The notes beneath the pieces were generated by a model. That model ran no database searches, was not told the origin of the DNA, and saw nothing but the letters and a program-made list of their open reading frames with translations. Shown here in pieces: positions 1,419-49,190 of a DNA stretch of 64,000 nt; the stretch's first letter is position 1; every line of letters begins with the position of its first letter. Source of the stretch: Candidatus Nomurabacteria bacterium (GTDB taxonomy: Bacteria; Patescibacteriota; Minisyncoccia; Phycocordibacterales; UBA9973). The stretch lies in NCBI GenBank assembly GCA_029288805.1, contig JARIGO010000022.1:30754-94753 (forward strand), in the 5' to 3' direction. A program made the translations under genes and the position numbers.

Positions 1419-2541
1419 GTTCAAGTGCGATAGCAATGGCTTCTGCAGCTATTTCTCGTGCTGCCTCCGGCTTATAGAAACTTCTGGCTTTTTCTGCCAT
1501 AGCGTCATAGTAATCTTTACGTCCGAGGATCAAATCTATTTCGTTTTTTAATACTGATGGAGTGAGATTCGATTCTTCGATAACGACGCATGCCCCGGTA
1601 CGTGCATAGTGATAGGCATTCTTGCGCTGATGGTCCCCATGAAATACTGCGGCACTACCTGGAATGATAATAGACGGCTTGCCCCATGCTGCAATTTCAT
1701 AGATTGAAGATCCTGCACGAGAGATGATAACATCCGCCGCTCCGCCAAACATCTTGGTTTGCAAGTCGTTGAAGTATGGAAAGATCTTGTAGCGTGTGCG
1801 CTTTACGTCATCACCAAGCAAGACTTCCGCATCGGTTTTCACCTCCTCAAAATTCTTCGGACCTGTTTGATGAATGATCTGATAGTGTTGGACTAACTCA
1901 ACAACAAGTGACGTAATGCTGTCATTAATGATCTTTGCACCAAGCGAACCGCCGATAACGCCGATGGTTGGAATACTGTCATCAAGCTCAAAGAATGCCT
2001 TGGCACCTTCCTTGGCAGAAAAAGCGATAGTCTTGCGAACAGGCTGACCAGTAATAGAAACTTTCTTTTCATCGAAATACTGTGCGGCTTCTGGATATGA
2101 CAAAGCTACGCGTCGTGCGAACTTGCCTGACCATTTGTTTACGCGACCTGGCACGGTATCAGACTCATGAACGATAACTGGTATGCGCAAGATGCGAGCT
2201 GCAACAAGCACAGGAAAGGCTGCATATCCTCCCTTACTGATAATGACATCTGGATACAAACTAAATAGTTTGAAGATAGCGCCAACAACACCAAATGCTG
2301 TCTTAAAAATATCAACAAAGTTTTGCCATGAAAAGTAGATGCGGAGCTTACCGGCAGTGATGGGAATATAGGTGATGAACTGTTCGTCCAGCTCCTTTTG
2401 GTTGTATGGAGCGTTGGACATGTAATACAGCTTGAACTTGGCAAACTTTTCCTCGTCAGCAATGCGGTTCAATTCTTCCGCTATGGCAATAAGCGGATAA
2501 AAATGTCCTCCAGTCCCCCCTCCAATCAACAAGATTTTCAT
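1408..2541 (-). CDS. murG: UDP-N-acetylglucosamine--N-acetylmuramyl-(pentapeptide) pyrophosphoryl-undecaprenol GlcNAc transferase
   Basis: 377 aa. N-terminal MKILLIGGGTGGHFYPLIAIAEEL G-loop and C-terminal GT-B domain. Sits next to ftsW and mraY. Confidence 0.93.
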   Translation of the reverse strand: MKILLIGGGTGGHFYPLIAIAEELNRIADEEKFAKFKLYYMSNAPYNQKELDEQFITYIPITAGKLRIYFSWQNFVDIFKTAFGVVGAIFKLFSLYPDVIISKGGYAAFPVLVAARILRIPVIVHESDTVPGRVNKWSGKFARRVALSYPEAAQYFDEKKVSITGQPVRKTIAFSAKEGAKAFFELDDSIPTIGVIGGSLGAKIINDSITSLVVELVQHYQIIHQTGPKNFEEVKTDAEVLLGDDVKRTRYKIFPYFNDLQTKMFGGAADVIISRAGSSIYEIAAWGKPSIIIPGSAAVFHGDHQRKNAYHYARTGACVVIEESNLTPSVLKNEIDLILGRKDYYDAMAEKARSFYKPEAAREIAAEAIAIALEHEH

Positions 2542-2632
2542 ACGTCTGTATATTGTAGCGATTTTAAGGAGTTATAACAACATGAATTGACTTTTTATAA
2601 AATAAATGATGTAATCTTCAAAATTATTTGAA

Positions 2633-6726: not shown

Positions 6727-8151
6727 CTATTGTTTCGGCTTTTTTAGGACGATATGCAGTTCTTCTACCTGCTTTTCACTGATAGTGGACGGTGCGGACA
6801 TCATTGGATCCTTTCCTTCTCCAGTCTTTGGAAATGCCATGACTTCACGAATGTTTGGTTCATTCAAAAGCAGCATCATGAGACGGTCAAAGCCCCAGGC
6901 AATACCGCCGTGTGGAGGCGTGCCAAGCTTGAATGCCTGTAGCATGTGACCAAAGTCACTTTCAATAGTTTCAACTGAGTGGCCGAGCAATTCAAAAACC
7001 TTGGACAATGCTTCGAATGAGTGATTACGAATAGAACCTCCACCGATTTCAAAACCGTTCAAAACGATATCGTATTGCGTCGTAAGGATACTTCCTACGG
7101 CTTCCTTGTTCATGAGATTACTCATATGCTCTTCAATCGGTCGTGAAAATGGATTGTGCGTATACGTCCATTCACCTTGTGCGTCAGGGTTGTCACTCTT
7201 ACTGGTTGATTCGAAAAATGGAAAATCTATGACCCAGCAAAATGCGAGCGAGTTTGGATCTTCTTTGTCATTACGGATATCAGGACGGTCATTGCCATAC
7301 TGCTCCATGGCGTCTTTGTATGAAATACGAGGAAATGGAATCTCTTGGATTTTCTTTTCAGGAAAGAGCTTTTGCACAATGTTGATGAGCAATGCTTCGT
7401 TCATCTGCATCACGGCTTCGCGATCCACGAAACTCATTTCCATATCAAGCTGAGTGAATTCGGGCTGGCGATCTCCACGGCCGTCTTCATCACGCATGCA
7501 TTTTGCGAACTGGAAGTATCGTTCCACTCCACCAGTCATGAGCAGCTGCTTATACTGCTGCGGTGATTGCGGCAAGGCATAAAAATGATTTGGGTAGAGA
7601 CGTGAAGGAACAACATAGTCACGCGCACCTTCAGGGGTAGACTTTGTAAGAATAGGAGTTTCTACTTCGATGAACTTTTGGTCATGCAAAAAGTCACGTA
7701 CGTATTTTTGCACCTCATCGCGCTTTCGCATATTGCGCTGCATGCGGGCACTGCGAAGATCCAAGTAGCGGTGCTTCAAGCGAGATTCCTCACCTACTTC
7801 CTTGGTATCCACATTGATCTCAAACGGCAACGGTTCTGCTTTGTTTAAAATAGTAAGAGCAGTGATTTCCAATTCAATGTCACCATTCTGCTTGTCGGCC
7901 TGCACGTTGCGTTCTGGGCGCTTGTTGATGATACCCTCCACAGCTACGACAGATTCAGGACGGGCATCCTTTACAGCCTCAGCCATTTCAGCGGCGCGGT
8001 TTGGCAAAATAACACCCTGGATGTACCCAGTCATGTCACGGAAATCAAAAAAGACGAGCTTTCCCTGGTCGCGACGAACGTCGATCCAGCCTTTGAATAA
8101 AATAGTTTCTCCAACGTGCGCTCCCGCGTCACCAATATATGTGCGTTCCAT
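6727..8151 (-). CDS. aspS: aspartyl-tRNA synthetase, short archaeal/eukaryal-type (no GAD insertion)
   Basis: 474 aa. N-terminal OB anticodon-binding fold, class II motifs (FRDE, GGGSIRNH, GxDR). The length fits the non-bacterial type. Confidence 0.9.
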   Translation of the reverse strand: MERTYIGDAGAHVGETILFKGWIDVRRDQGKLVFFDFRDMTGYIQGVILPNRAAEMAEAVKDARPESVVAVEGIINKRPERNVQADKQNGDIELEITALTILNKAEPLPFEINVDTKEVGEESRLKHRYLDLRSARMQRNMRKRDEVQKYVRDFLHDQKFIEVETPILTKSTPEGARDYVVPSRLYPNHFYALPQSPQQYKQLLMTGGVERYFQFAKCMRDEDGRGDRQPEFTQLDMEMSFVDREAVMQMNEALLINIVQKLFPEKKIQEIPFPRISYKDAMEQYGNDRPDIRNDKEDPNSLAFCWVIDFPFFESTSKSDNPDAQGEWTYTHNPFSRPIEEHMSNLMNKEAVGSILTTQYDIVLNGFEIGGGSIRNHSFEALSKVFELLGHSVETIESDFGHMLQAFKLGTPPHGGIAWGFDRLMMLLLNEPNIREVMAFPKTGEGKDPMMSAPSTISEKQVEELHIVLKKPKQ

Positions 8152-8251
8152 AGTTCTCCCATTCTACCCGAAATAAGGCTTTTTTAAAAGCCTGGCCGCT
8201 TTGCAAGCATTGCATAGCACTGCCGAGATAAAGAAAAACTGAAGAGGAAAT

Positions 8252-8758: not shown

Positions 8759-8841
8759 GCTGTTAATTTTTTATCATTATGAATAATTATCACTATTTGT
8801 CAAATATATTGCTTTCTTTGCATTGATGATATTCTTACTAT

Positions 8842-9138
8842 ATGCAAATACCCGAAAATGGCTTTTATTACCATTACAAACACGATGAAGCGAAGGGGTT
8901 CAATGATCATGCGTATGAGGTTTTTGGAATAGCCCGCCATACGGAAGAAAAAGGATTCTTGGTGCTATACAAGCCTCTATATGAAAACGATTGGTTTATT
9001 CCTGCCAACTACCAAGCACGTCCTTTGGATATGTTTAATGAAGATGTGATTATTGACGGAAAATCAGTTCCACGGTTTACAAAGATTACTGACCTGGAAC
9101 TGATAGAAAAATTAAAATTAGTCAAAAACACAATATAA
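8842..9138 (+). CDS. DUF1653-family protein
   Basis: 98 aa. The GFYYHYKH ... YEVFGIARHTEEKGFLVLYKPLY ... WFIPANYQARPLDMF ... GKSVPRFTKI pattern matches the conserved DUF1653 core. Confidence 0.65.
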   Translation: MQIPENGFYYHYKHDEAKGFNDHAYEVFGIARHTEEKGFLVLYKPLYENDWFIPANYQARPLDMFNEDVIIDGKSVPRFTKITDLELIEKLKLVKNTI

Positions 9139-14168: not shown

Positions 14169-15138
14169 TTACTGTGTTAGCCCTATCGCTTCATACACGT
14201 CAAAGATTTTTTTCATGGCGATGTCGTTGGCTTTCATGGCGCCTTCGACGAGGATTTGCTGAACGAGTTTTGGGTTGGCAGCAAAGTAGTCACGACGAGC
14301 ACGCATTGGCGTTACGAAGTCGATGATATCCTTGATGAGCATTTTTTTTGCATCACCATAGCCAAGACCTTTGGTATATTGGGCTTTTAATTCTTCTGAG
14401 CCATTAAAGAGCTTGTGAATCTGATAGATAACGAGTTCATCAGGATTCTTTTCCTCATCCTTACCACGAGAGTCAGTAGTGATACCCATGACTGCTTTCG
14501 TGATTTCTTCATCAGTACCAAATAACGGGATGATGTTGCCATAACTTTTTGACATCTTTTGCCCGTCAGTACCCGGAATGACTTCCACTTCTTCCAAGAT
14601 AAGTTCCTTCGGTAGCTTGAATAGTTCTCCGTACTGATTGTTGAACTTACCAGCGATATCACGTGCGTACTCAACATGCTGCTTCTGATCCTTTCCTACA
14701 GGAACAACATCAGTGTTATAAAGCAAAATATCTGATGCCATCAGTACAGGATAATCAAATGTACCGACATTTACTTCTGCTTTCTTTGCCTCAGCATCTT
14801 TGAAGGCATGGGCACGCATAAGATATGGCACTGTTACGAGATTGTTGAATACCCACGTGAGGTTAGCATGAGCCAAAACATCAGACTGTTTGAACAATGT
14901 CACTTTTTCTGGATCAAGACCTGCACCCAAGTAGTCAAGAATAAGATCATGAGTATCTTGCATAAGCTTGTCCTTTGCAGGAAGGCCGGTCAGCGCATGC
15001 AGGTTCGCAATGAAGATAAAACTATCGTGAGTATCCTGTAAATCAACGAATTGTTTCAATGCGCCGAAGTAATTACCGAAATGCAGACGACCAGTTGGCT
15101 TCATGCCAGAAAATAGACGAGGTTTTGTGGATTCCATG
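14169..15138 (-). CDS. trpS: tryptophanyl-tRNA synthetase
   Basis: Class I HIGH-like GRLHFGNYFG, VGKDQKQHVEYARDIA and KMSKS (GQKMSKSYGN). Start moved to the MESTKPRLFSG methionine, which is preceded by TATGAT-N6. Confidence 0.9.
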
Positions 15139-15144
15139 GGGATA

Positions 15145-15150
15145 TCATAC
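15145..15150 (-). promoter_or_regulatory. -10 box (TATGAT) 6 nt upstream of the trpS ATG, consistent with a leaderless transcript
   Basis: Minus-strand sequence tggTATGATatccccATG with no Shine-Dalgarno. Confidence 0.4.
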
Positions 15151-15216
15151 CAAAAAATAAGGGCTTTTGGAAATAAGGAGAAAAGAGATGAGTTTTTTAT
15201 CAAGAAGTAATGGTGA

Positions 15217-15222
15217 TACAAT
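15217..15222 (+). promoter_or_regulatory. -10 box (TACAAT) 6 nt upstream of the dnaB ATG
   Basis: gtgaTACAATaaaggcATG. The same geometry appears at the diverging trpS. Confidence 0.4.
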
Positions 15223-15228
15223 AAAGGC

Positions 15229-16614
15229 ATGTCTAAGTCTCCTATGGCCACTCACACACTTCGCATTCCTCCTCACGATCTTGAGGCTGAACAAGCGGTT
15301 CTTGGTGCCCTCATGCTTCGCCCGAGCGCTATTCACGATATTGTGGATTTGCTGACACCTGAAATGTTTTATGCCAAGAAGCACAGCATCCTGTACAAGA
15401 CCATTATTGAACTCTCCAACAAAAACGAACCAATAGACGTGCTGTCTGTAGCTGCAAAGCTCAAGGAAAAGAAATGCTTGGAAGAAATCGGCGGTAATGC
15501 CTACCTTAACGAGCTTATGGGCAACGTGCCTTCTACCGTGAACATTCGTCACTATGCTGAAATTGTCTACAAAAAGTACGTATTGCGCTCATTGATCGAT
15601 GCATCTGAAAACATTGCTACCATTGCCTACGATCAAAACGACATGGAAGTGACAGAAATATTGGATACTGCAGAAAAAAGCATCTTTCGTATTTCTTCTG
15701 GCATGAACACAAAGAATGCCTTTGTGTCTATTAAGAATTCCTTGATGGAAACAATGGAGCAGACCATTCGCCTCTCTGAATCAAAGGATGAAATTCGTGG
15801 TGTTCCTACAGGATATACGGATCTCGACGCATTGACTGCCGGCTTGCAAAAGTCCGACCTTATCATTCTTGCAGCACGTCCAAGTATGGGTAAGACAACG
15901 TTTGCCCTTGATATGGCACGTAACGTGGCATTGTCAGGCACTCCTGTCGGCATCTTTTCATTGGAAATGAGCGCGCAACAGCTCGTACAGCGTATGCTTT
16001 CAGCCGAAAGTCGCGTTGACGCCTGGAGTATTCGTACTGGTCACGGTCTTTCAACGCATCACTTCACCGCATTGCAGGAAGCGGCGAGCCGTTTGCAAAA
16101 GGCTCCTATCTACATTGATGACCAGGCTGGTAACTCTATCGTCAAAATGCGTTCCGTGGCACGCCGCCTCAAGAGTGAACACGGCCTCGGACTTATCGTT
16201 GTGGACTACTTGCAGCTCATGACTACCAGTAAGAGCTACGACAATATGGTGAACCAAGTGACAGAAATCTCTCGTTCATTGAAGCAATTGGCTCGTGAAC
16301 TTGATGTTCCAGTACTTGCATTGTCACAGCTTTCTCGTGCCGTTGAATCACGCGGCGGTCGTCCTCGTCTTTCTGACCTTCGTGACTCTGGTTCCATTGA
16401 GCAAGACGCCGACTTGGTTATGTTCATTCACCGTGAAGACCGCTACAAGGAACAGCACGAAAAGGACAACATTACTGAAATCCTGATTGAAAAACACCGT
16501 AACGGTGCGGTTGGTATGGTGCAACTGCTCTTTGATGGCAAGACTACGTCATTCTTGAACATGGACAAGACGCATGTGCCGGTACAAAAGGCCGCATCTC
16601 TTGATGACTTCTAA
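15229..16614 (+). CDS. dnaB: replicative DNA helicase
   Basis: 461 aa. N-terminal PPHDLEAEQAVLGALML, Walker A ARPSMGKTTFALD, and the RecA-like C-terminal domain. Confidence 0.95.
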   Translation: MSKSPMATHTLRIPPHDLEAEQAVLGALMLRPSAIHDIVDLLTPEMFYAKKHSILYKTIIELSNKNEPIDVLSVAAKLKEKKCLEEIGGNAYLNELMGNVPSTVNIRHYAEIVYKKYVLRSLIDASENIATIAYDQNDMEVTEILDTAEKSIFRISSGMNTKNAFVSIKNSLMETMEQTIRLSESKDEIRGVPTGYTDLDALTAGLQKSDLIILAARPSMGKTTFALDMARNVALSGTPVGIFSLEMSAQQLVQRMLSAESRVDAWSIRTGHGLSTHHFTALQEAASRLQKAPIYIDDQAGNSIVKMRSVARRLKSEHGLGLIVVDYLQLMTTSKSYDNMVNQVTEISRSLKQLARELDVPVLALSQLSRAVESRGGRPRLSDLRDSGSIEQDADLVMFIHREDRYKEQHEKDNITEILIEKHRNGAVGMVQLLFDGKTTSFLNMDKTHVPVQKAASLDDF

Positions 16615-17271: not shown

Positions 17272-17628
17272 TTACGCGATAGCGTTAATCTTTACTTTGA
17301 TGTAAGGCTGGCGATGGCCATTCTTTTTCATGTAGCGGCTCTTTTGCTTGTACTTGATAACCGTTACCTTTGGAGCGCGGCCTACAACGACAACTTCACC
17401 ACTTACTACAACCCCTGATACGAGTGGAGTGCCGATAACAGTAGTAGCACCGTCATCTGTAAGCAAAACCTGGTCAAATGACACAGCGTCGCCTTTCTTA
17501 CTTTCTTCCTTAAACTTTTCAATAGTAATAGTGTCGCCTACTGCTACGCGGTACTGCTTGCCTCCAGTCTTAATGACTGCAAACCCTGCCGCTGAGGCCT
17601 TTTTAGTTGTCTTTTTTGTAGTTGCCAT
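17272..17628 (-). CDS. rplU: 50S ribosomal protein L21 with a basic N-terminal extension
   Basis: AVIKTGGKQYRVAVGDTI ... KKNGHRQPYIKVKI matches the L21 signature. Confidence 0.9.
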   Translation of the reverse strand: MATTKKTTKKASAAGFAVIKTGGKQYRVAVGDTITIEKFKEESKKGDAVSFDQVLLTDDGATTVIGTPLVSGVVVSGEVVVVGRAPKVTVIKYKQKSRYMKKNGHRQPYIKVKINAIA

Positions 17629-17682
17629 ATTGAGCCAATAGTATACCTAATTAAGGATATTTTGCAAGTATCCTAATAATGT

Positions 17683-17688
17683 TATACT
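17683..17688 (+). promoter_or_regulatory. promoter TTGCAA-N15-TATACT with the -10 box 7 nt before the ATG
   Basis: ttTTGCAAgtatcctaataatgtTATACTgaaaaccATG. Confidence 0.4.
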
Positions 17689-17695
17689 GAAAACC

Positions 17696-18505
17696 ATGAT
17701 TTCCCGCTATACATACCACGGTTTAACCTGGGTCGACCTTGAATCCCCAAGTCGGGAAGAAATCCTCCATATTAGCGAAGAATTTGGCCTTACCAAGCTG
17801 GTCGAAGAAGAGATGTTTTCCAGCACTCTGCGCTCAAAAGTGGACCTCTATGACAACTTTATTTACCTGATCCTACACTTCCCTGTTTTTAACAAAAACA
17901 ACAAAATGCGTAATGACCAGGAACTAGACTTCATCGTCGGCAAGAACTTTATCATTACTGTTCGATATGAACTCATTGATCATATCGGGCATTTTGCATC
18001 ACTCTTTGAAAACATTGAGAAGATCGACCAAAACAGAAAGATTACCGATACCGGCATCATGTTCATGGAAATGATGAAGCATTTGTACAAGGCTTCTGCC
18101 AAACAGCTGGAAGAAATTACGAACCGCATTCCTGAAATCGAGCACAATATTTTCAATGATCGCGAGGAAGCCATGGTTAAGATCATTTCCCAAACTAATC
18201 GCAAACTCCTGGACTTCAAGCAGGCTATCCGTTTTCATGAACACATCCTTAACTCATACGCTTCGGCAAGCAAGCGCTTCTTTGGCGACAACTATAGTTA
18301 CTATTCAGAAGTCATTATTTCTGAATTTAATAAAGTGAACTTCACCCTTGAAGGACATCATGACCTGCTCAAAGAATTGCAGCGTACCAACGACTCATTA
18401 CTCGCAACAAAATCAAATGCCATTCTTAAGCGCCTTACCATTGTCAGTGTCATAGCAACAGTACTTGCTGCCATAGCTGGTTTTGCCTTCTTACTGCATA
18501 AATAA
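17696..18505 (+). CDS. CorA-family Mg2+/Co2+ transporter homolog, truncated at TM1; lacks the GMN pore motif and TM2
   Basis: 269 aa. The CorA N-terminal cytoplasmic domain is conserved (HGLTWVDLESPSREEI...FGL..L.EEE...LRSKVDLYDNFIYLILHFP). The protein ends LTIVSVIATVLAAIAGFAFLLHK*, just before where YGMNF would sit. Confidence 0.6.
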   Translation: MISRYTYHGLTWVDLESPSREEILHISEEFGLTKLVEEEMFSSTLRSKVDLYDNFIYLILHFPVFNKNNKMRNDQELDFIVGKNFIITVRYELIDHIGHFASLFENIEKIDQNRKITDTGIMFMEMMKHLYKASAKQLEEITNRIPEIEHNIFNDREEAMVKIISQTNRKLLDFKQAIRFHEHILNSYASASKRFFGDNYSYYSEVIISEFNKVNFTLEGHHDLLKELQRTNDSLLATKSNAILKRLTIVSVIATVLAAIAGFAFLLHK

Positions 18506-20521: not shown

Positions 20522-21991
20522 TCAATTATCTTGACGTGGCTTGAGTAGCGGAAAGAGCTGTGTCTCGCGAAGTGGCTTGTCCACCAAAAAAGCAAAGAAT
20601 CGTTCCCCGCCAATACCAAATCCAAAGGCTGGAGGCATGCCGTGTTCAAGCATCTCCACAAATTCATCATCTGACATCATGGCCTCTTCATCCCCTGACT
20701 CAATGAGTTGTTTTTGCAATGCAAAGCGTTCTGCCTGGTCCACTGGATCGTTTAATTCTGAGAAGCCATTGGTACATTCCGCACCCGCCAGGATAAGTTG
20801 TACACGTTCCGTAAGAAGTGGGTTTTCGGGCTTGGCTTTTGCCAATGGAGATACAAGCTTTGGCACGTCAATAAGCCATGCTGGTCCACTAATTTGCTTA
20901 CGGCAGTATTTCCATAATGTATCGGTTAGACGTTCTTTATTAGCTCCCTTATAGCTCACGCCAAGCTCTGCGAGTTTCGCCTTCATTTCATCTTCGGTCG
21001 CTTCAAGAACATTGATTCCAGTTTTTTCCAACACAATATCTACGTATGAAATGCGAGGCCATTCTGGAGCAGAAAGATCAAAAGAATGTCCGCGAGTATT
21101 GAATTGCAATGTACCGAATGTCTGTTCCACTACCGTCTTAAGCATACGCTCTGTAAACTCAATGCCTTTATTGTAATCCATGTACGCTGCATAAAATTCC
21201 ATGTTGGTGAATTCTTGCAAATGCTCTGGACTGGAACCTTCGTTACGGTAGACACGACCGATTTCAAACACTTTTGGAAAACCGGCTGCTAGTAAACGTT
21301 TCTGCCATAATTCACCTACTGAAATACGCATGTACACATCCATATCAAAGTCATTATGATGTGCTTGAAATGGTCGCGCTTCTGCCCCACCGGTTGTGAC
21401 TTCAAGCGTTGGTGTTTCTACTTCCAGGAAGTCTTCATTAATCAAAAAATTGCGAATGCTCTGCCAAAACTTTGCCTTCTTGATAAACATGTCACGCAAG
21501 TCAGTGTTTTGGAGAATATCCAAGTATCGCTTCCGGTAGCGCTCATCATCATCCTTCAGGCCATACCATGCATCAGGAATAGGACGAAGACTTTTTGTCA
21601 GCATCTTCCAATCCTGCACAAAGATACTTTGCGCGCCCCGCTGGGTGGTATATGCAGTACCGATCACTTCCACGAAGTCACCGATGTCTACAGTATCAAC
21701 AAATAAATCATAAATGGACTTATCCATTTCATCAGCCTTAAAGAATGCCTGGATTTTGCCAGTACCATCATAGATATCACAAAACGTAATGCCGCCCTGG
21801 CCACGCTTGCTCATGATACGTCCTGCCAATGTAACAATATCCTTGCCTGATTCATACAAGTTGAATCGGTCAATAAACAACGCAATGGTGTCAGTGCGAT
21901 GTGTTTCAGCTGGATATGGATTAATGCCCTGTTCTTCCAATAACGCTTTCTTTTTCAGACGATCTGCCCGGAGTTCTTCTAGTGATGCCAT
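20522..21991 (-). CDS. lysS: lysyl-tRNA synthetase, class II
   Basis: 489 aa. N-terminal OB fold (AGRIMSKRGQGGITFCDIYDGTGKIQ) and class II motifs including FEIGRVYRNEG. Confidence 0.92.
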   Translation of the reverse strand: MASLEELRADRLKKKALLEEQGINPYPAETHRTDTIALFIDRFNLYESGKDIVTLAGRIMSKRGQGGITFCDIYDGTGKIQAFFKADEMDKSIYDLFVDTVDIGDFVEVIGTAYTTQRGAQSIFVQDWKMLTKSLRPIPDAWYGLKDDDERYRKRYLDILQNTDLRDMFIKKAKFWQSIRNFLINEDFLEVETPTLEVTTGGAEARPFQAHHNDFDMDVYMRISVGELWQKRLLAAGFPKVFEIGRVYRNEGSSPEHLQEFTNMEFYAAYMDYNKGIEFTERMLKTVVEQTFGTLQFNTRGHSFDLSAPEWPRISYVDIVLEKTGINVLEATEDEMKAKLAELGVSYKGANKERLTDTLWKYCRKQISGPAWLIDVPKLVSPLAKAKPENPLLTERVQLILAGAECTNGFSELNDPVDQAERFALQKQLIESGDEEAMMSDDEFVEMLEHGMPPAFGFGIGGERFFAFLVDKPLRETQLFPLLKPRQDN

Positions 21992-22006
21992 ATGGTACTC
22001 AGTATA

Positions 22007-23074
22007 CTATATTCCTTCCTTTTTTAGTTCCTCTATCACCTCCTTGGCATGTTTGGAAAGTTTTTCCGGCAAGGTAATGTTCAACTTCACGATGAAGTTT
22101 CCTCGTTTTGAACCATGAGGTACGCCAAAATGTTTCAACACTACCGTGTCGCCAATCTTAGTACCAGCAGGTACGGCAACAGTCTGCTGACCATCTAATG
22201 TTTCAACTGCATAGGTTGCTCCCAGCAATGCGTCAGTAAGCTTAATAGAAAGCGTGCTGGTAAGGTCGTTTCCATTGCGAACAATTGTCTTATGAGGTGT
22301 CACTGAAACACGGACGTACAAATCTCCTGATGGGCCGCCTTTGATAGCCTCACCCATACCTTGCAAGCGAAGTGTCTCACCGTTTTGAATGCCGGCAGGT
22401 ACTGACACCTTGATAGTGCGAGGTTCATTTACGACACCCTTACCCTTACATGTCTGACATGCTTCATCGGGAATCTTTCCAGTACCGTCACACTTATTAC
22501 AAATCTGTGTAGTAGCAATAGAGCCGAGAATGGTACGCTGTACGCTTTTTACTACACCGTTACCATTACACTGATCACAGGTGTGAAGCTTGGTGCCAGG
22601 CTTTGCGCCATCACCATGACAGGTATTACACGTTGAGGGCTTGGTAATGCGAAGTTCCTTTTCAACGCCAAAGATGGACTCCTTGAAGTCGAGCGCAATG
22701 CTGGTTTGCAAATCCGCACCACGACGATTCTTGGCACGACGACTGCCGCCACCAAACATCTCTCCGAAAATATCGCCCATATCAAAACCGAATCCACCAT
22801 CCTGTGTGAACTGTGAGAAATCAAACCCATCAAAGCCGCCACTGTATCCGCCTCCACCCATTTGTGGTCCCGCGGATCCAAACTGGTCGTACTGAGCGCG
22901 CTTGTTGTCATCAGACAGTATCTGATACGCCTCATTCACTTCTTTGAATTTCTTGTCATCACCGCCATTTTTATCAGGGTGATGCTTATGAGCAAGCTTG
23001 TGAAAAGCCTTTTTGATCTCTTCTTTTGAAGCCTTTTTTTCCACTCCCAAAATATTGTAATAGTCTTTACCCAT
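22007..23074 (-). CDS. dnaJ: chaperone DnaJ
   Basis: J domain (DYYNILGV...HPDKN), G/F-rich linker, and four CxxCxGxG zinc-finger repeats. TATAAT sits 7 nt upstream of the ATG. Confidence 0.92.
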
Positions 23075-23245
23075 ATGTCTAATTATACCATGCAAAACAG
23101 CCGCTAAATGCGGCCGTTTTGCGAGATTTAGCTAATAAGTACGTATTATCGGTGTCGAAGAGAAACTGTCTTCCCTTCTGCCTTTCGCTTTTTCTTTGCA
23201 GCTACTTTGCGCTTCTTGTTCATAGTGCGAACACTATATCACAGA

Positions 23246-25259: not shown

Positions 25260-25303
25260 ATACATGTTGATAGTATACCAATCTTCTGATACTATGCAAG
25301 TAT

Positions 25304-25849
25304 ATGGAACAGAGAAAACCCAAACCAAACTATTCAAAGAGAATATTGGCTCTTTTGGGTAACAAACCTGCTATTTCTATAGCCGATTTAGAGGAAAATC
25401 TTATATCCTCGCTCACGCTATCTAATGCTAAGCATGCGCTAAAGCGCTCGCTTAGAGGCCTAGAAGAGGCAGGATTGATCGAAACCCACCATTCTGGACA
25501 GCAGACCTATTCCCGCCTGACGCGTGAAGGTAAACGCAAGGCATACAGCATTAGTCTGGATCATGAAAATACCGTTTTTAACCCGGCATGGGACGGCAAA
25601 TGGCGCATTGTCCTGCTCGACCTTTCCGAAGACCGCAAATCAGAACGCGAAGGCCTCCGTTATCTCCTCAAAAAAGCCGGCTTTATGTTGCTCAAAAATT
25701 CTGTTTGGATCTCCCCGTATCCGTTCGAGCATCTTTTTATGAACATCAAAAAAGACCTCGGGCTAACAACAGAACTAATGATCTTTGTGACAGATACATT
25801 AGACCCGGAAACAGAAGCAGCCTTTACTGAATTATTAAATCGTCTGTAA
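25304..25849 (+). CDS. compact PaaX-like winged-helix transcriptional regulator
   Basis: 181 aa. The N-terminal wHTH (RILALLGNKPAISIADL...LEEAGLIETHHSGQQTYSRLTREGKRKA) and the C-terminal WDGKWRIVLLDLSEDRKSEREGLRYLLKKAGFMLLKNSVWISPYP match the PaaX N- and C-domains. Confidence 0.5.
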   Translation: MEQRKPKPNYSKRILALLGNKPAISIADLEENLISSLTLSNAKHALKRSLRGLEEAGLIETHHSGQQTYSRLTREGKRKAYSISLDHENTVFNPAWDGKWRIVLLDLSEDRKSEREGLRYLLKKAGFMLLKNSVWISPYPFEHLFMNIKKDLGLTTELMIFVTDTLDPETEAAFTELLNRL

Positions 25850-26297: not shown

Positions 26298-26918
26298 CTA
26301 TTTAACTTTATATACTGACACTCTCGCTGCTCGCAATACGGTATTGCCCAATTTGTACCCCTGCTGCAAGACTGCAGAGATTTTGTGTTCGAGTAATGCG
26401 TCAGTGGTTTCTGTTTCAGACACTGCTTCATGAAGCGCAGGATCAAAGGTTTCCCCTACCGCACCAAAGGCTGTGAAGTTACGATCCTTCAATACCGTCA
26501 TAAGCTGCTGATAGATGTATTCCACACCAGTGCGCCAGTTAGCATCAACTTTCTCCCATGCTTCCTTATTGCTCATAGCCATAGAGAAACTATCGACAAC
26601 CGGTATCAATTCCTCAATAAAATTTTCCTCTATCAAGCCGCGCATGCGCTTACGATCCTCTTCCTGGCTTTTCTGCAGGTTGGCATAGTCCGCACGTGAA
26701 CGCTGCCAGCCATCCAGGTACTCCTGCTTTTCTTTTGTAAGCAGAGCGATTTTTTCTCTGAGATCCTTCGTCTTCTTGGCACCTCCGAGGGCATTTCCCT
26801 CCTCATCGCTCGCCTCAAATACCATATCCGCATCCTGGTCAATTTCCGTATGGGTAGCCACGTTTGGCGCCTCAATCTCGTCTGATTGCACTACTGAATT
26901 GTATTCATCGTCTTTCAT
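26298..26918 (-). CDS. grpE: nucleotide exchange factor GrpE
   Basis: GrpE C-terminal signature (LIPVVDSF ... QQGYKLGNTVLRAARVSVYK). Start moved to MKDDEYN because a TATAAT box lies 7 nt upstream of that ATG, inside the longer caller ORF. Confidence 0.85.
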   Translation of the reverse strand: MKDDEYNSVVQSDEIEAPNVATHTEIDQDADMVFEASDEEGNALGGAKKTKDLREKIALLTKEKQEYLDGWQRSRADYANLQKSQEEDRKRMRGLIEENFIEELIPVVDSFSMAMSNKEAWEKVDANWRTGVEYIYQQLMTVLKDRNFTAFGAVGETFDPALHEAVSETETTDALLEHKISAVLQQGYKLGNTVLRAARVSVYKVK

Positions 26919-26925
26919 ATGGTTG

Positions 26926-26931
26926 ATTATA
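26926..26931 (-). promoter_or_regulatory. -10 box (TATAAT) 7 nt upstream of the grpE ATG
   Basis: Minus-strand sequence ttttgTATAATcaaccatATG. Confidence 0.4.
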
Positions 26932-26940
26932 CAAAAAAGC

Positions 26941-28117: not shown

Positions 28118-29122
28118 TTAGTCCTTTAAAGACAAGTTGAACTGAGCAAGGGCTTCTTTGATTTCAGTAATACCTTTATCGCCGATACCGTCGATTTCAA
28201 GAAGGTCGTCTACACGCTTGCGTGCAATACCACCAACAGTACGAATGTTTGCAGCTGAAAGCGCATTCAATGTACGAGTTGAAAGTCCGATACTGTCGAT
28301 ACGATTTTTCAATACGTCAGTAACATCTACTGCTTCCTCATCAGATGCAGCTGTTTCTTCGTCTGAAATCATAGAATCCATTACTGGAGCCTTTGCAGTT
28401 GTCTGTGCTTGTATGTCAGCAATGATCTTTCCACTATCAACTGAGATGATAGCTGCAAGTTGTTCAATCATTGTCTGTACTGATGTTTCAAGAGCTTCTC
28501 GAGGAGAAAGTGTGCCATCAGTTTCGATTGTAAGTCGAAGGCGGTTAAAGTTAGTCTTATCCCCCACACGCATTTCCTCTACGTCATAGCTCACGCGACG
28601 AATTGGAGAGAAAATTGCATCCAAGAAAATAGTACCAATATCTGCCTTCTGCTTGTGATGTGCATCACGAGGCACGAAGCCAAGACCACGTTCGATAGTG
28701 ATCTCAACATTCAAAGCGGCCTTACCGGTGATTTCACAAATGTACTGGTCTGTATTTGATACAGTTACTGCACCCTTGGCATTGATGTCAGCGGCAGTAA
28801 CGATCTTTGGTCCTTTTACTGAAAAAGAAACTTTTGCTGGCTCATCACCAACAAGCTGGAAGCGAACGTTTTTTAGGTTTAGCAAAATAGTGATAACGTC
28901 TTCCTTCACGCCTTCGATAGTAGAAAATTCGTGTGATACGCCATCGATTTTGATAGCGGTAATAGCTGCACCTGGAAGTGAAGAAAGGATGATGCGTCGT
29001 AGAGAGTTACCGAGTGTGTAACCGTATCCTGGAACCAAGCCATCTATTTCAAAGATGCCTTTGTTACCCTCTTCAAGTATTGCTTTTGGTTTTGATGGAA
29101 GAATGATTTTTTGCTCGCTCAT
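28118..29122 (-). CDS. rpoA: DNA-directed RNA polymerase alpha subunit
   Basis: YGYTLGNSLRRIILSSLPGAAIT N-terminal domain and the C-terminal alpha-CTD. Start set at MSEQKIILP. Confidence 0.93.
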   Translation of the reverse strand: MSEQKIILPSKPKAILEEGNKGIFEIDGLVPGYGYTLGNSLRRIILSSLPGAAITAIKIDGVSHEFSTIEGVKEDVITILLNLKNVRFQLVGDEPAKVSFSVKGPKIVTAADINAKGAVTVSNTDQYICEITGKAALNVEITIERGLGFVPRDAHHKQKADIGTIFLDAIFSPIRRVSYDVEEMRVGDKTNFNRLRLTIETDGTLSPREALETSVQTMIEQLAAIISVDSGKIIADIQAQTTAKAPVMDSMISDEETAASDEEAVDVTDVLKNRIDSIGLSTRTLNALSAANIRTVGGIARKRVDDLLEIDGIGDKGITEIKEALAQFNLSLKD

Positions 29123-29173
29123 ATAGTGAAATATAGTACCATTATTTTGTAATTCGTGCAACTTTGTGTTCTA

Positions 29174-30795: not shown

Positions 30796-31017
30796 TTACC
30801 CTCTTCTGACAATACGTCCTTTTCCACCGTAGGGATCGAGCAAAACATCGACTGTATCGCCCACCAAAACCTTGATTCTGTGGAGTCGCATCTTCCCTGC
30901 GAGATAACAAACGAGAGTATCACCCGAATTATTTCCACCGACAAGTTCTACCCGAAACATAGTATTCGGAAGAGCTTCTTGGACGACACCTTTAACTGGT
31001 TCTTCTTGTGCTGACAT
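30796..31017 (-). CDS. infA: translation initiation factor IF-1
   Basis: 73 aa S1-like OB fold (VVQEALPNTMFRVELVGG...). Confidence 0.95.
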   Translation of the reverse strand: MSAQEEPVKGVVQEALPNTMFRVELVGGNNSGDTLVCYLAGKMRLHRIKVLVGDTVDVLLDPYGGKGRIVRRG

Positions 31018-31060
31018 TTGCAGATGACACTATACTAAATTTTCTTATACGGGTCAAGCA

Positions 31061-32347
31061 TTATTTCACTTCTACCGTTATGCGATCTGATTTATACGGG
31101 AAATACGGCGCCCAAAACGGAAATAATGAGTATTGTGCCGTGTCTATTTCTTGAATTCCGCTTAAGGCACCCATAAATGACCCGCGTGATATGCCCAAAA
31201 CGTCTTGTTTAACGGCATCAAGCGGTACGTTGGTAATGATGGTACCCGTTCCAGAAACATCAAGACTGATTGAGCTAGGAATGCCATTTGGATCTGTAGG
31301 CAACGCTGTCATTGGTGTCACATGAATGCCTCCAAGATCCGGAATGCTCACGTCGGGATAGACATGGTCACTGATAGCTTTTGCCGCTATTGCCTGCTCA
31401 AAACCGTCTCGAGGAACAAGGTATGACACCATAGTACCTTTCAAGGTAGCAGAAAACTGAATAGTATTTCCTTGCAAGACGGTGGCATTGTTATCGATGG
31501 CAGTAAACTGCAGACTTGGAAACGTTATAAGGTTGCTTGGAATCTGTGAACTGGTTTCTCGAGACAGTTTCTCTTCCAAGGCTGCCTGCAGTGTTGCCAA
31601 CGCTTGTTGTTTGTCAGCATCAGAAAGAGTATGCATTGCCCCGTTTTGTCCACCCGTGATGGCACCCGCAGAGCTAGCGTAAAAAGTTTTTGAATTAGCA
31701 CCTGTCCAACCGCTAATGGTAAATGTAGTGCCGTCGGAATTATACGCAGGGCCAACACCTGCGGCAGTGATGGCTACCGTTGCACTGCCGGCAGTTTTTT
31801 TGTTACCAGTTCCCGTGTACCCAGGAACACTGACCGTGGCAGTAGTCACATATTTCTCGCCATTGGCGCCAGTTAGCGTGGTGCCGCTGCGTACAGTCTG
31901 ACTCTTTGTGCTGTATTGATTGAAAATGACGGCCTGACCGGTAGCCTTTGTGGTACTAGTAGTCATGGCTGAACCAAAGACCTGACGCGTTACCGAGTCA
32001 GTTACTACCATAGTTTGGAATGACAGGCGGCCCGGATCTGCAATGTTTTGATTTTGCACGTCGACTTCGGTATCAAGCAGTGAGAATGGGATTTGGCGCT
32101 GAGTGACGATAACCTTGGCATGCACAAAAATCATGCCGCCAAGATAGAGCAAAACAATAAAAGCCAATGCTCCTCCTACGATAAAGATTTTCTTCCATCG
32201 AGAACGTGGAGACTCCTCTATATATGTCTTTTCTATAATGCGAGGACGGCGTGGTGGCTGAGCAGGCAATGTCGCCTCCTTGTCCAAGTCATGCTCGCCT
32301 TTGTCTTGGTGATCCTTGCGAATCACGTCATAGAGTTTCAATGCCAT
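31061..32347 (-). CDS. hypothetical bitopic membrane protein: basic cytoplasmic N-terminus, one TM, Thr/Gly/Ala-rich extracytoplasmic domain
   Basis: 428 aa. TM at about residues 55-77. The large T/G/S-rich region suggests a surface or stalk protein. No confident family match. Confidence 0.45.
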   Translation of the reverse strand: MALKLYDVIRKDHQDKGEHDLDKEATLPAQPPRRPRIIEKTYIEESPRSRWKKIFIVGGALAFIVLLYLGGMIFVHAKVIVTQRQIPFSLLDTEVDVQNQNIADPGRLSFQTMVVTDSVTRQVFGSAMTTSTTKATGQAVIFNQYSTKSQTVRSGTTLTGANGEKYVTTATVSVPGYTGTGNKKTAGSATVAITAAGVGPAYNSDGTTFTISGWTGANSKTFYASSAGAITGGQNGAMHTLSDADKQQALATLQAALEEKLSRETSSQIPSNLITFPSLQFTAIDNNATVLQGNTIQFSATLKGTMVSYLVPRDGFEQAIAAKAISDHVYPDVSIPDLGGIHVTPMTALPTDPNGIPSSISLDVSGTGTIITNVPLDAVKQDVLGISRGSFMGALSGIQEIDTAQYSLFPFWAPYFPYKSDRITVEVK

Positions 32348-32354
32348 ATCAGTA

Positions 32355-33512
32355 TTATATCAATCGTTCAATAAAAAGCGCGCCGAGTGCCAAGCCGGTA
32401 TCAGGTTGCTCCATGCTGATAACCTTTATAGAGGATGAAAGGTTAAGAATGTCCACAAAATGCACATCAATCTCTGAAACGGCTGCGCTATGCAGTAAGA
32501 ACGGATCGGTACTGATAGTTTGACTAAATACATTTTCAAAGCGATGGTCAGACACAACATAGCAATCCGAAGGAAATCGCACGCTGGTATTGCCTTGATC
32601 AACAAGCGCATGAAAACCTTTCTGCCAGGTAGCGGAAAAAGACTGTAATGCTTTTTCAATAACACGACCGTTATTTGGAGAAAGTTTCTTAAGGCGGTAT
32701 GCCTCCACCAATGTGCGGGCTTCCATAAGACTGCCAGTCACATTGCTCAATGTGCGATAGAGTTCATATGTACCAACTGGAAATGACTGTTGGGAAATAA
32801 CAGCACTGTTTTTTACAAATGCCACATCCGTCACTTCTTCACCAACATCAACGATGACGCAATCCTTGGCAATGCCGCCATTGTCACGAAGAGCCACGAA
32901 TGCAGCGTATGAGCCAGTGGTAACCTGTATCTTTCGATCACCATAGCTCCGGCGCAGGATACTGGTAAAGCGTTCTGCTACAACCTTTGGTATAAGCGTG
33001 ACATGGAGGACGATTTCAAGCGATTGCACTTTTTTGCCATACGGATCGGCAGTTTCATAGCCATTCAACAGCACATGCGAGAGTTGCTGTTCAGCCAACG
33101 CAAACGTATCTCCAAGCTTTTGATTGTCACCGTCAGGCTGTTTCAGCAAAAAGGCAATTTCCTTTTCAATAAGCGAGTCAACAAGACGCTGCGTGCATGA
33201 AAATGCCGTTGCTCTGTTGTATGTAATAGTGCGCGTGTAGGAGTTATACCACGGTGAACCCAATACTACCTGAATCATGGAAGGATGGTGCACATCCGCA
33301 GTGCGAACATGCTGTATGACGGTTTCCAATGTCTTGGCAGTGTCCTCAACAAAGCGCTCTATGGTTATTTCTTCCTCAAGACCGCTATCACGACGTTCTT
33401 GTACAAGGATAGTGACAGAATTTTTTCCATCGACGTGTTCAACCAATGCATGCGCACCACCAACACTACTCGAACTAATATCAAAGACAGCAACTGCAGT
33501 GCTTTTACTCAT
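32355..33512 (-). CDS. actin-like ATPase-fold protein (PilM/FtsA-like ASKHA family)
   Basis: 385 aa. The N-terminal VAVFDISSSSVGGA phosphate-1-like motif and CVIVDVGEEVTDVAFV phosphate-2-like motif are typical of the FtsA/PilM/MreB fold. Confidence 0.5.
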   Translation of the reverse strand: MSKSTAVAVFDISSSSVGGAHALVEHVDGKNSVTILVQERRDSGLEEEITIERFVEDTAKTLETVIQHVRTADVHHPSMIQVVLGSPWYNSYTRTITYNRATAFSCTQRLVDSLIEKEIAFLLKQPDGDNQKLGDTFALAEQQLSHVLLNGYETADPYGKKVQSLEIVLHVTLIPKVVAERFTSILRRSYGDRKIQVTTGSYAAFVALRDNGGIAKDCVIVDVGEEVTDVAFVKNSAVISQQSFPVGTYELYRTLSNVTGSLMEARTLVEAYRLKKLSPNNGRVIEKALQSFSATWQKGFHALVDQGNTSVRFPSDCYVVSDHRFENVFSQTISTDPFLLHSAAVSEIDVHFVDILNLSSSIKVISMEQPDTGLALGALFIERLI

Positions 33513-33551
33513 GCGTACAGTATAGCAGTAAAAAATATTTTTTTGTTGTTA

Positions 33552-35359: not shown

Positions 35360-37177
35360 TTAGGCACGCTTCTGAGTCTTAAGCCACGCCGCATACTTTT
35401 GGGACATATCTTCAAAACTTTTCTTGTTGTTTGCAATAACCTCCTTACCGCTGACAAGCGTGATATGAGCATCTAGGTTAATAGATTTCTTATAGTGAGG
35501 CTTTTTAGAAAGGGTTTCAATTCGTTCCTTTGCGGTTTTTAGAACAGAAGGAATGGAACGGGTTACATTTCTTATATAGGGCATAGCAGAAAGTTTTTTA
35601 CCAGTGGCAATTTTAACGAGTTCAGGAAAAGTTTTTGATGAACCATACTTCCAGACCTTTTTCATTTCCTTGGCTATGTGTGGATTGTCTACGATATATC
35701 CATACTTCTTAAAGAAGTATTCACGCCACTGCGAAAGCGCCAATTCCGCTAACGCATATCCCTGATATCCACACGCATTATCCCATGCATAAATATGAGG
35801 AACTCCCAGTACCCACAACGAATCAGCCGAGTAGTCGGAATACTTTTTCATTGCTTTCTTTGCAGCCGCAATAACCTTTTCTCCGGTAAGATTTTTTATT
35901 TCGTATACTTCTTTTTCAAAACCGCACACGCACATCAAACTCATCATGCCGAGCGGCTGTATAACGTGCAACGCCCTAACCCTCCGTTCAAAAAACGAAA
36001 ATGGGTATATTTCCCCTGCAGGATTTTTAGCATACCGAGATCTCCATTCTATGCTTGAGAAGACAGTATCGAGAAACATGCTTTGGGTTTCAGCCCACGC
36101 AGTTGAAGATGGTGGGTATTCATTATTAACACAAACATCTTTCATCTCCACGTTTAGCAAGTGAGCGGCATGTCCACCTTCATGAAAAAGCGTTTCAAGA
36201 CCCAAAGAAGATTGACCCGGTAAGCCGAGTACAACGTTGCATGTTAGCTGGGCCCTTCCAGGGATACGCTTCTTTCCCTCAAAGCGAATTGGTTCCGGCC
36301 AATGACAAAAGCCGTTGTCATATTTGCCCGCTCTGTCCAACAAATCAAACACCAACGCACTGCCTTGATATGTAATGCCAAGGGCAGCAAACGACTTACC
36401 CCATCGATCCAGGCTTTCTTCAAAAGGATAATATTGATCTTCCTCTTTCACAAAAGATCCAGCCATCATATAAGAAAAGTTCCACGGCTTGCGTAAGCCA
36501 GGCATGGTCTTTTCAAGCTTACGAATGTTTTCGAATCCATATTTTGTCTTTTCATAAATAGTGTCAAACAGCGTAAAGAGTTCCTTTTTGGTCATGCCTT
36601 CTTCAGTATCAAGCTTGAAAGCATAAAAATCCTCATAGCCCAATATCCTGGCATATTCATTACGCAACTGCACCAATGTTACATAGCGGTCTACACTTTC
36701 CAAGTTAAGCTTGGTCATGGCGTCAAAACACGCCTTGCGAACTGCTTCATCATCGGAGGTTCCTATTAATGACCTCATTGCATTTCTTGCTGCCTTTATA
36801 AATTTTCCAGTCTTGGGATCAATGTATCCTTCCTTGCGAGTAGCGTGCACCGTTTCAATTTTTGTTTCCAGTGCATTGATTTTTTCCTTAAGCGCACGAG
36901 CTTCTACGGGAACTTGGTATAGTGAAAAGAATCGCTGCCAGTATCCAAGTCGCTCTTTTGTTTCTCCGGTACTATGCTTGATATATTCATCAACTGCGTT
37001 TTTTAACATTTCATTAGCACGAAACTCATTGCGAGCTTTTGAGGCCAATTCTTTTTTGTCATTAACACTATGGTCACCCATAAAGCTGATCCAGAACAAG
37101 TCTTCAAATGTGGTGTGAATCTTTGAGTAAGTCGTATTGAGATAATGTAACAGCTCATCTGCGTTTTTCCATTTCAT
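35360..37177 (-). CDS. zinc metallopeptidase, M3 (oligoendopeptidase F-like) family
   Basis: 605 aa. HEGGHAAH zincin motif about 390 aa from the N-terminus. Length and helical architecture fit PepF/M3B; M32 is not excluded. Confidence 0.55.
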   Translation of the reverse strand: MKWKNADELLHYLNTTYSKIHTTFEDLFWISFMGDHSVNDKKELASKARNEFRANEMLKNAVDEYIKHSTGETKERLGYWQRFFSLYQVPVEARALKEKINALETKIETVHATRKEGYIDPKTGKFIKAARNAMRSLIGTSDDEAVRKACFDAMTKLNLESVDRYVTLVQLRNEYARILGYEDFYAFKLDTEEGMTKKELFTLFDTIYEKTKYGFENIRKLEKTMPGLRKPWNFSYMMAGSFVKEEDQYYPFEESLDRWGKSFAALGITYQGSALVFDLLDRAGKYDNGFCHWPEPIRFEGKKRIPGRAQLTCNVVLGLPGQSSLGLETLFHEGGHAAHLLNVEMKDVCVNNEYPPSSTAWAETQSMFLDTVFSSIEWRSRYAKNPAGEIYPFSFFERRVRALHVIQPLGMMSLMCVCGFEKEVYEIKNLTGEKVIAAAKKAMKKYSDYSADSLWVLGVPHIYAWDNACGYQGYALAELALSQWREYFFKKYGYIVDNPHIAKEMKKVWKYGSSKTFPELVKIATGKKLSAMPYIRNVTRSIPSVLKTAKERIETLSKKPHYKKSINLDAHITLVSGKEVIANNKKSFEDMSQKYAAWLKTQKRA

Positions 37178-37183
37178 GCCGGT

Positions 37184-37189
37184 ATTATA
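37184..37189 (-). promoter_or_regulatory. -10 box (TATAAT) 6 nt upstream of the peptidase ATG
   Basis: Minus-strand sequence gtgtTATAATaccggcATG. Confidence 0.35.
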
Positions 37190-37208
37190 ACACTACGATT
37201 CTGAAACA

Positions 37209-38576: not shown

Positions 38577-38607
38577 AAGACGATACTACCATACGTTATT
38601 AAAAAAG

Positions 38608-42006: not shown

Positions 42007-42029
42007 GCTACTAGTATAGCATTGAGTAT

Positions 42030-45307: not shown

Positions 45308-45325
45308 AGGATTGCAGTATAACAC

Positions 45326-45989: not shown

Positions 45990-46001
45990 ATCACTATTGT
46001 A

Positions 46002-48926: not shown

Positions 48927-48952
48927 GTATTGCGCAATATAAGAGCGCGTGT

Positions 48953-48958
48953 TATTAT
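48953..48958 (+). promoter_or_regulatory. -10 box (TATTAT) 7 nt upstream of the rpsU-like ATG
   Basis: gtgtTATTATctgacccATG. Confidence 0.35.
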
Positions 48959-48965
48959 CTGACCC

Positions 48966-49190
48966 ATGTCAATGACCAATGTAGAAATCAAGAGAAACGG
49001 GACCGAAAACGCTTTGGGTGTTATTCGTCGTTTTACTCGCAAGATGCAGGAATCACAAATCATTCCTAAAGTGAAAGGCCAGCGCTATGCAGTTCGCCCA
49101 ATCTCAAAGCTTGCGGAAAAGAACATGAAAGTAAAGCGCCTTGCACGACGCGTAGAAGTTGAAAAACTCAAAAAGCTCGGCAAAATGTAA
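48966..49190 (+). CDS. rpsU: 30S ribosomal protein S21-like
   Basis: 74 aa and very basic. GVIRRFTRKMQESQI...RYAVRPISKLAEKNMKVKRLARR resembles S21. Confidence 0.55.
   Translation: MSMTNVEIKRNGTENALGVIRRFTRKMQESQIIPKVKGQRYAVRPISKLAEKNMKVKRLARRVEVEKLKKLGKM

Follow-up and report, generated by a model that had tools for sequence, protein, structure and literature searches.

Leaderless Systems Already Described and the Stretch Examined

A Pribnow box lying 6-8 nt from the start of operon-first genes is the bacterial signature of leaderless transcription that characterizes group C of GeneMarkS-2, where 25-50% of operons are leaderless and most members come from the Actinobacteria and Deinococcus-Thermus (Lomsadze et al. 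2018, PMC6028130); the leaderless transcriptome of M. tuberculosis is a further example (Cortes et al. 2013, as cited in PMC6028130). In this study, a comparable geometry was found in a 64,000-nt stretch of a Candidatus Nomurabacteria genome (contig JARIGO010000022.1, hereafter the window), in which TATAAT-like hexamers stand immediately before the start codons of many genes, among them the divergent pair trpS and dnaB. These hexamers are most probably sigma-70-type −10 boxes, so that many mRNAs of a lineage without Shine-Dalgarno (SD) initiation would be leaderless or nearly so, a reading to which we assign a probability of about 0.82.

The window resembles group C in the placement of a −10 box 6-8 nt before first genes, in the absence of SD sequences at those genes, in the weakness of the −35 element, in the predominance of AUG starts and in the share of transcription units concerned, which is 25-50%. 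However, the remaining genes of group C use SD, whereas SD words in this lineage show no positional enrichment, and most boxes of the window belong to the extended −10 (TGn) type; its genome, moreover, is AT-rich and tiny rather than GC-rich. The placement of the TG and the weak −35 are shared with extended −10 (TGnTATAAT) sigma-70 promoters, although these form a general promoter class with no inherent link to leaderless mRNAs. Neither the candidate phyla radiation (CPR) nor the Parcubacteria are among the lineages named in the main text of PMC6028130.

For Parcubacteria, an anti-SD motif has been detected in only 48% of 16S genes, leading to the conclusion that SD helices probably do not form in those organisms (Tsurumaki et al. 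2022, RNA 28:1041, PMC9297842). That work covers rRNA and ribosomal proteins, and leaderless mRNAs and start-site specification are not discussed in it. The organism of the window belongs to the same superphylum and, like its relatives, shows no SD usage; the present result fits the reported loss of the anti-SD and plausibly supplies an initiation route for it. SD sequences are also essentially absent upstream of genes in Bacteroidota (group B of GeneMarkS-2), but the single non-SD motif of that group precedes all genes, including operon-internal ones, on leadered mRNAs, whereas the box in this lineage is confined to the starts of transcription units. No description of leaderless genes in CPR was found in the literature searched, where a mention in supplements or in transcriptome work on TM7x is possible. 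What appears to be new is a CPR lineage combining an extensive, conserved leaderless architecture with no use of SD, the mechanism itself being known elsewhere.

Hexamers Adjacent to Start Codons

The 91-bp spacer at 15139-15228 separates the divergent genes trpS and dnaB, each of which carries a TGn-preceded hexamer 6 nt from its ATG (Table 1). Both starts agree with family profiles of NCBIfam, residue 5 of TrpS aligning to position 2 of TIGR00233 and residue 8 of DnaB to position 4 of PRK05748. The longest open reading frame (ORF) of trpS would reach into dnaB, as it begins 38 codons earlier with a GTG.

An earlier note on this DNA had named ten genes with a −10-like hexamer near the start, and all ten are present as it wrote them, including the gene starting at 17696 with its TATACT at 7 nt and an upstream TTGCAA. 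Its gene names also held, since family searches returned dnaJ, grpE, mnmA, frr, mreB, priA, trxB, the M3 peptidase and rpoA, as well as murG, scpA, scpB and two class II aminoacyl-tRNA synthetases (aaRS); the exception is the 74-aa gene called rpsU-like, for which Pfam S21 matched below threshold (E = 0.0018) and BLASTP gave no more than a weak match to E. coli RpsU. A scan for −10 hexamers beside starts, which the note had proposed, showed clear enrichment under two definitions of the start. When the first ATG, GTG or TTG of each long ORF was taken blindly as the start (74 ORFs), a match to TATAAT of at least 5/6 ended exactly 6 nt before it in 10 ORFs, against 0.36 expected; the control was the 2,504 other ATGs of the window, with a hexamer rate of about 0.5% per position. 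In a curated set of 70 window genes, with the box defined as TAnnnT matching TATAAT in at least 4/6 positions at a distance of 6-8 nt, 24 genes carried one (with a spacer of 6 nt in 13, of 7 nt in 7 and of 8 nt in 4), and their start codons were ATG in 23 cases and GTG in one. This enrichment corresponds to P = 1e-19 against the genome background and to P = 1e-10 against the AT-rich intergenic background, where the GC content is 36% and TAnnnT occurs at 2.6 times the genome rate per position. A TG dinucleotide at the extended −10 position precedes 16/24 of the boxes, compared with a background of 8% (P = 1e-12). The same script applied to an E. coli K-12 stretch found a start-adjacent box in 1/42 genes.

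In the curated set, eight of the 24 box-adjacent starts had been shifted downstream from the longest-ORF start. For five of these eight (trpS, dnaJ, frr, priA and trxB), the match coordinates of NCBIfam profiles give independent support for an N-terminus at the ATG beside the box, and the unmoved starts of dnaB, mnmA and mreB are backed by the same profile check. Beyond the 24 genes, a good box at 9-11 nt was identified in six more: murG, rplU, scpA, two aaRS genes and infA.

Conservation in Related Genomes

A DnaB-based scan taking one genome per species yielded 80 related loci with DnaB identities of 94-59%, all from metagenome-assembled genomes (MAGs) labelled Candidatus Nomurabacteria, Paceibacterota or Patescibacteria (some 'Saccharibacteria'), which places the organism of the window in the CPR. 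The dnaB box is kept in 75/78 orthologs, 69 of them with TGn and 62 with exactly TACAAT, at a spacing of 6-7 nt in 55 and 8-10 nt in 20, even as the spacer itself takes 69 distinct sequences. The trpS box is kept in 71/72 orthologs (69 with TGn) and that of the corA-like gene in 60/60, and the start codon is ATG in 71/71 trpS, 60/60 corA-like and 73/75 dnaB orthologs. Thus even orthologs with as little as about 40-60% protein identity retain box and distance, the letters of the spacer being free to vary, as selection on a promoter held at a fixed distance from the start would predict.

The pattern extends to the other genes of these loci. Among 1,311 crudely called genes of the 80 genomes, hexamers peak at 6 nt from the start (8.8%; 80/115 with TG) and again at 7 and 9 nt, and TG-bearing hexamers are near zero elsewhere. 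In all three identity tiers of the relatives, the box is present at 31-47% of uncoupled genes.

Promoter Identity and Genomic Context

When 361 boxes from the relatives were aligned on the hexamer, T (62%) and G (54%) were found at the extended −10 positions, about 55% of the boxes carried TGn, and a weak, T-rich TTG appeared upstream at 17-bp spacing; neither the TG nor the TTG columns formed part of the search pattern. The combination of TGn with a weak TTG at 17 bp is that of a putative extended −10 sigma-70 promoter with a weak −35. The distance from the −10 element to the transcription start site (TSS) is 6-7 nt across 49 bacteria with mapped TSSs, canonically about 7 bp (PMC12641261). 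As the preferred spacer in this lineage, 6-7 nt, is the same as this canonical distance, the A of the ATG is predicted to fall at +1.

The distribution of the box follows the organization of the genes. In the 80 related loci, 42% of divergently transcribed genes have it, as do 36-38% of same-strand genes lying 6-100 nt behind their neighbour, compared with 7.5% of coupled genes (overlap or gap ≤5 nt), a figure that falls to 0.9% if TGn is required. The box therefore marks the starts of transcription units, that is, genes needing their own promoter, and is essentially absent at translationally coupled genes. Within the window, many genes packed only 7-25 nt behind the preceding gene carry their own box. 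The start codons of the divergent genes mreB and priA lie 27 bp apart with two TATAGT boxes back to back between them, leaving no room for a leader on either gene. At dnaJ, only 4 nt separate the TGG of the box from a 13-bp terminator hairpin upstream of it (−23.7 kcal/mol, z = −6.0), and the rpsI terminator (26969-26950) runs into the grpE box.

Shine-Dalgarno Usage

SD words are not enriched in this lineage. Across 1,310 genes of the relatives, neither GGAG, GAGG and AGGA nor GGAGG and AGGAG showed a positional peak over the 60 nt preceding the start, and an SD-like 4-mer at −17 to −5 was present in 3.5-7.8% of genes in every context class, approximately the chance level. The corresponding count in the window was 4/70 genes, against 24/42 (57%) in the E. 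coli K-12 control. No SD word occurs in the 6-8 nt spacers of the box genes. A GGAG is found upstream of, and overlapping, the trxB box, and another lies between the box and the predicted TSS of the aaRS gene starting at 8151, in the discriminator; lying before the predicted TSS, the latter would not be transcribed as an SD. The earlier note had credited a few genes, such as the one starting at 52798 and ftsZ (51136), with a clear GGAGG, but such words are no more frequent than chance would provide. Given the flat profile in 1,310 genes and GGAGG at chance level, the lineage appears to make no use of SD, a step further than the note had gone.

The window contains no rRNA gene, and none of five universal 16S words was found in 1.3 Mb of the 80 related loci. 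A metagenome scan with the pattern GTCGTAACAAGGTA-N(20-45)-TTTAAAG, aimed at 16S tails able to pair with the CTTTAAA leader word described below, returned almost exclusively canonical tails, in which GGATCACCTCC is followed by TTTAAAG. Seven metagenome contigs (L099, L108, L113, L124, L156, L167 and L186) have 16S-like 3′ ends with GTCGTAACAAGGTA but without a following GGATCACCTCC, and so lack an anti-SD; their GC content is 25-38%, and a uS13 gene is nearby on L156 and L167. These tails could be of CPR or organellar origin and are not assignable to the lineage of the window.

Proposed Mechanism and Alternative Explanations

The earlier note had read the hexamers as −10 boxes from which transcription starts at or beside the A of the ATG, and the TG and TTG elements, the spacing, the context and the conservation all support that reading. 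The hexamers would act as −10 elements, mostly of the extended type (TGnTAnnnT), with a weak or dispensable −35. RNA polymerase holoenzyme would recognize TGnTAnnnT, melt the DNA and initiate at a purine about 7 bp downstream, so that spacers of 6-7 nt would place initiation at the A of the ATG and spacers of 8-11 nt would produce a leader of 1-5 nt. Leaders of 1-5 nt are usually regarded as functionally leaderless. The resulting mRNA, with a 5′ untranslated region that is nil or nearly so and without an SD, would have its 5′-terminal AUG bound directly by the ribosome and initiator tRNA. The rest of the genes would be either tightly coupled to the preceding one (gap ≤5 nt or overlap; about a quarter) or provided with an AT-rich leader without SD. 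Such a leaderless architecture very probably covers roughly a third of the window genes and, among the Nomurabacteria/Paceibacteria relatives, 30-50% of the genes without translational coupling.

Several points weigh against this interpretation. The 5′ ends of the transcripts are inferred from geometry only, and read-through from upstream genes could reach the boxes located in tight same-strand gaps. The eight moved starts were re-set with the motif known, and three of them have no independent N-terminal support. A −35/−10 consensus scan of 20 kb (14-34 kb) found 31 sites compared with 33.8 in shuffles; this two-hexamer sigma-70 scan recovered only four start-adjacent boxes, and terminator-like sites in the same segment were not enriched over shuffles either. 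Since a generic promoter scan is not enriched, the argument rests on position, the TG extension and conservation rather than on promoter score. A pyrimidine at −1 is not significantly commoner at box genes than at others; C at −1 is commoner in the 6-nt class (54/131 versus 99/707), in counts that are phylogenetically redundant. The totals from the relatives hold many orthologs of the same genes and are likewise not phylogenetically independent.

The best surviving alternative, which we consider unlikely, is that the boxes are real promoters with a minor role, while longer transcripts, polycistronic or initiated upstream, dominate and the ATGs are internal, being used by coupled or SD-independent initiation. 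Read-through of this kind is plausible at the genes starting at 32347, 45989, 42006 and 21991, whose boxes lie only 7-25 nt behind a same-strand gene with no obvious terminator between. However, the divergent pairs trpS/dnaB, mreB/priA and rplU/corA-like cannot receive such transcripts, terminator hairpins precede dnaJ, grpE and the M3 peptidase gene, and the strong purifying conservation of box and distance in 60-75 orthologs indicates that the box is the functional signal.

Considerably less probable is that the TA-rich hexamer is not a promoter but a non-SD ribosome-binding or enhancer motif in leadered mRNAs, as in group B Bacteroidota. The motif does occupy the position of a ribosome-binding site, and a lineage with no SD signal needs another initiation signal. 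Nevertheless, such a motif would be expected at operon-internal genes too, and the box occurs at 7.5% of coupled against about 40% of uncoupled genes; in addition, RNA polymerase contacts both the TG extension and the TTG at 17 bp, neither of which has a known role in ribosome binding, and neither the mreB/priA spacer nor the terminators abutting boxes leave space for an upstream promoter and a leader. The idea that the pattern is a chance or composition artefact of AT-rich intergenic DNA and motif-fitted starts, which the TAnnnT-rich intergenic background and the refinement of some starts after the motif had been seen would favour, has next to no likelihood and was rejected: the peak is present with blind starts and significant even against the intergenic background, the TG extension lies outside the search pattern, the box is conserved over 80 genomes, and the E. 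coli control yielded a box at 1/42 genes.

A broader proposal built on the leaderless reading is more tentative, and we would give it slightly less than even odds: that the lineage has abandoned the SD/anti-SD interaction, that a promoter-placed 5′ AUG sets most independent starts and tight coupling sets the rest, and that some leadered genes with strong promoters may also employ (C)CTTTAAA, about 10 nt before the ATG, as a novel non-SD leader word.

Implications for Start Annotation

The longest ORF overshoots the box-adjacent start in 8/24 box genes. For trpS, trxB, grpE, dnaJ and frr, whose starts have profile support, the excess is 6-48 codons (38 in trpS, 48 in trxB and 25 in grpE), as listed in Table 1. 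CPR genomes are known almost only as automatically annotated MAGs, in which gene callers driven by SD or by the longest ORF will mis-annotate N-termini, and the box offers a simple, testable start-calling rule for this clade. The same arrangement would predict the promoter and start architecture for expressing genes in these organisms. The findings also offer a concrete answer to the question of how start codons are chosen in Parcubacteria lacking an anti-SD (PMC9297842): if the interpretation is correct, a promoter-placed 5′ AUG would be the missing initiation mechanism. An AT-rich lineage with ultra-small genomes would thereby join the bacteria with extensive leaderless translation, a point relevant to the view of leaderless initiation as an ancestral mode that a reduced translation apparatus favours.

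Table 1. Window positions of start-adjacent and near-start boxes and of leadered starts with a CTTTAAA-type word; predicted leaders and over-extended longest ORFs are given under remarks.
Gene or feature	Coordinates	Strand	Start	Arrangement	Remarks
murG	2539..2560	-	2541	TACAAT-10 nt-ATG	near-leaderless; predicted leader ~3-4 nt
class II aaRS gene	8149..8169	-	8151	TAGAAT-9 nt-ATG	
DUF1653 gene	8827..8844	+	8842	TGA-TATTCT-6 nt-ATG	
trpS	15135..15152	-	15137	TGG-TATGAT-6 nt-ATG	spacer letters atcccc; longest ORF 14169-15251
dnaB	15214..15231	+	15229	TGA-TACAAT-6 nt-ATG	spacer letters aaaggc
rplU	17626..17648	-		TTGCAA-16-TATACT-11 nt-ATG	predicted leader ~4-5 nt
corA-like gene	17680..17698	+	17696	TGT-TATACT-7 nt-ATG	TTGCAA 15 nt 5′ of hexamer
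class II aaRS gene	21989..22009	-	21991	TATACT-9 nt-ATG	orthologs mostly TGn-box-9 nt
dnaJ	23072..23090	-	23074	TGG-TATAAT-7 nt-ATG	DnaJ profile begins at residue 1-4; longest ORF 22007-23095
PaaX-like regulator	25287..25306	+	25304	TGA-TACTAT-8 nt-ATG	
grpE	26916..26934	-	26918	TTG-TATAAT-7 nt-ATG	directly 3′ of rpsI terminator; longest ORF 26298-26993
rpoA	29120..29138	-	29122	TATATT-7 nt-ATG	weaker box, without TG
infA	31015..31057	-		TTGACC-17-TATAGT-11 nt-ATG	predicted leader ~4-5 nt
428-aa membrane protein	32345..32362	-	32347	TGA-TATAAT-6 nt-ATG	box within 3′ end of upstream gene (gap 7 nt)
385-aa protein	33510..33527	-	33512	TGC-TATACT-6 nt-ATG	
M3 peptidase	37175..37192	-	37177	TGT-TATAAT-6 nt-ATG	
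mnmA	38574..38591	-	38576	TGG-TAGTAT-6 nt-GTG	sole non-ATG case; profile begins at residue 1-7
422-aa protein	42004..42021	-	42006	TGC-TATACT-6 nt-ATG	
frr	45305..45324	-	45307	TGT-TATACT-8 nt-ATG	longest ORF 44771-45325
holB-like gene	45987..46004	-	45989	TACAAT-6 nt-ATG	
mreB and priA	47019..47051	divergent	47021 (mreB, -); 47049 (priA, +)	TATAGT-7 nt-ATG each	
bS21-like 74-aa gene	48950..48968	+	48966	TGT-TATTAT-7 nt-ATG	
trxB	53119..53136	+	53134	TATAAT-6 nt-ATG	profile begins at residue 3; longest ORF 52990-54063
295-aa membrane protein	58333..58350	-	58335	TGG-TATAGT-6 nt-ATG	
195-aa protein	60288..60305	-	60290	TGA-TATAAT-6 nt-ATG	
244-aa protein	61647..61664	+	61662	TGC-TATGAT-6 nt-ATG	
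leadered starts		-	10970; 11667; 12296; 25132 (dnaK); 37479; 63563	CTTTAAA or CCTTAAA	
leadered starts		+	49595 (ftsA); 63753	CTTTAAA or CCTTAAA	

Leadered Genes and Neighbouring Features

Where a start-adjacent box is lacking, a canonical TTGACA/TTGACT-17-TATAAT promoter followed by an AT-rich leader is often present instead. In eight leadered genes of the window (Table 1), CTTTAAA or CCTTAAA is present, typically some 9-12 nt ahead of the ATG (range 3-17 nt), and its distance to the ATG varies less than that to the −10 box. The form (C)ACCTT(T)AAAA is kept in orthologs of the ABC protein starting at 10970. Among 231 leadered genes of the relatives, TTAAAA, TTTAAA and CTTTAA are enriched 4-6 times at −26 to −5 compared with −60 to −30, and the positional maximum of the word, 10-12 nt from the ATG, accounts for about 10% of these genes. 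It could be a non-SD leader element, or could merely reflect an A/U-rich leader.

The chaperone genes grpE, dnaK and dnaJ (window 22007-26993) do not form one operon, as the PaaX-like regulator (25304) and a 107-aa ORF on the plus strand intervene. A strong terminator with A-tract, hairpin and U-tract lies between dnaK and dnaJ, and dnaK has a leader, whereas grpE and dnaJ have start-adjacent boxes. The genes infA (73 aa) and rpmJ (36 aa), at window 30635-31017 on the minus strand, precede rpsM-rpsK-rpsD-rpoA-rplQ, and a spurious 85-aa plus-strand ORF (30757-31014) overlaps infA.

A 344-aa protein encoded at 42591-43625 (minus strand) has a sigma-70 region 4 domain at its N-terminus together with a HARE-HTH domain, and its neighbours are an uncharacterised gene and one for an M50 site-2 protease; its gene is without a start-adjacent box, and the protein may be an unusual transcription factor of the clade. 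Two segments of the window, 8200-12300 and 60000-64000, have a lower GC content (about 39-40%, versus 44-47% elsewhere) and contain several small proteins without a family match, strong canonical promoters and leadered mRNAs. The second of them also includes tRNA-Glu (60413-60485, minus) and tRNA-Val (61163-61237, plus).

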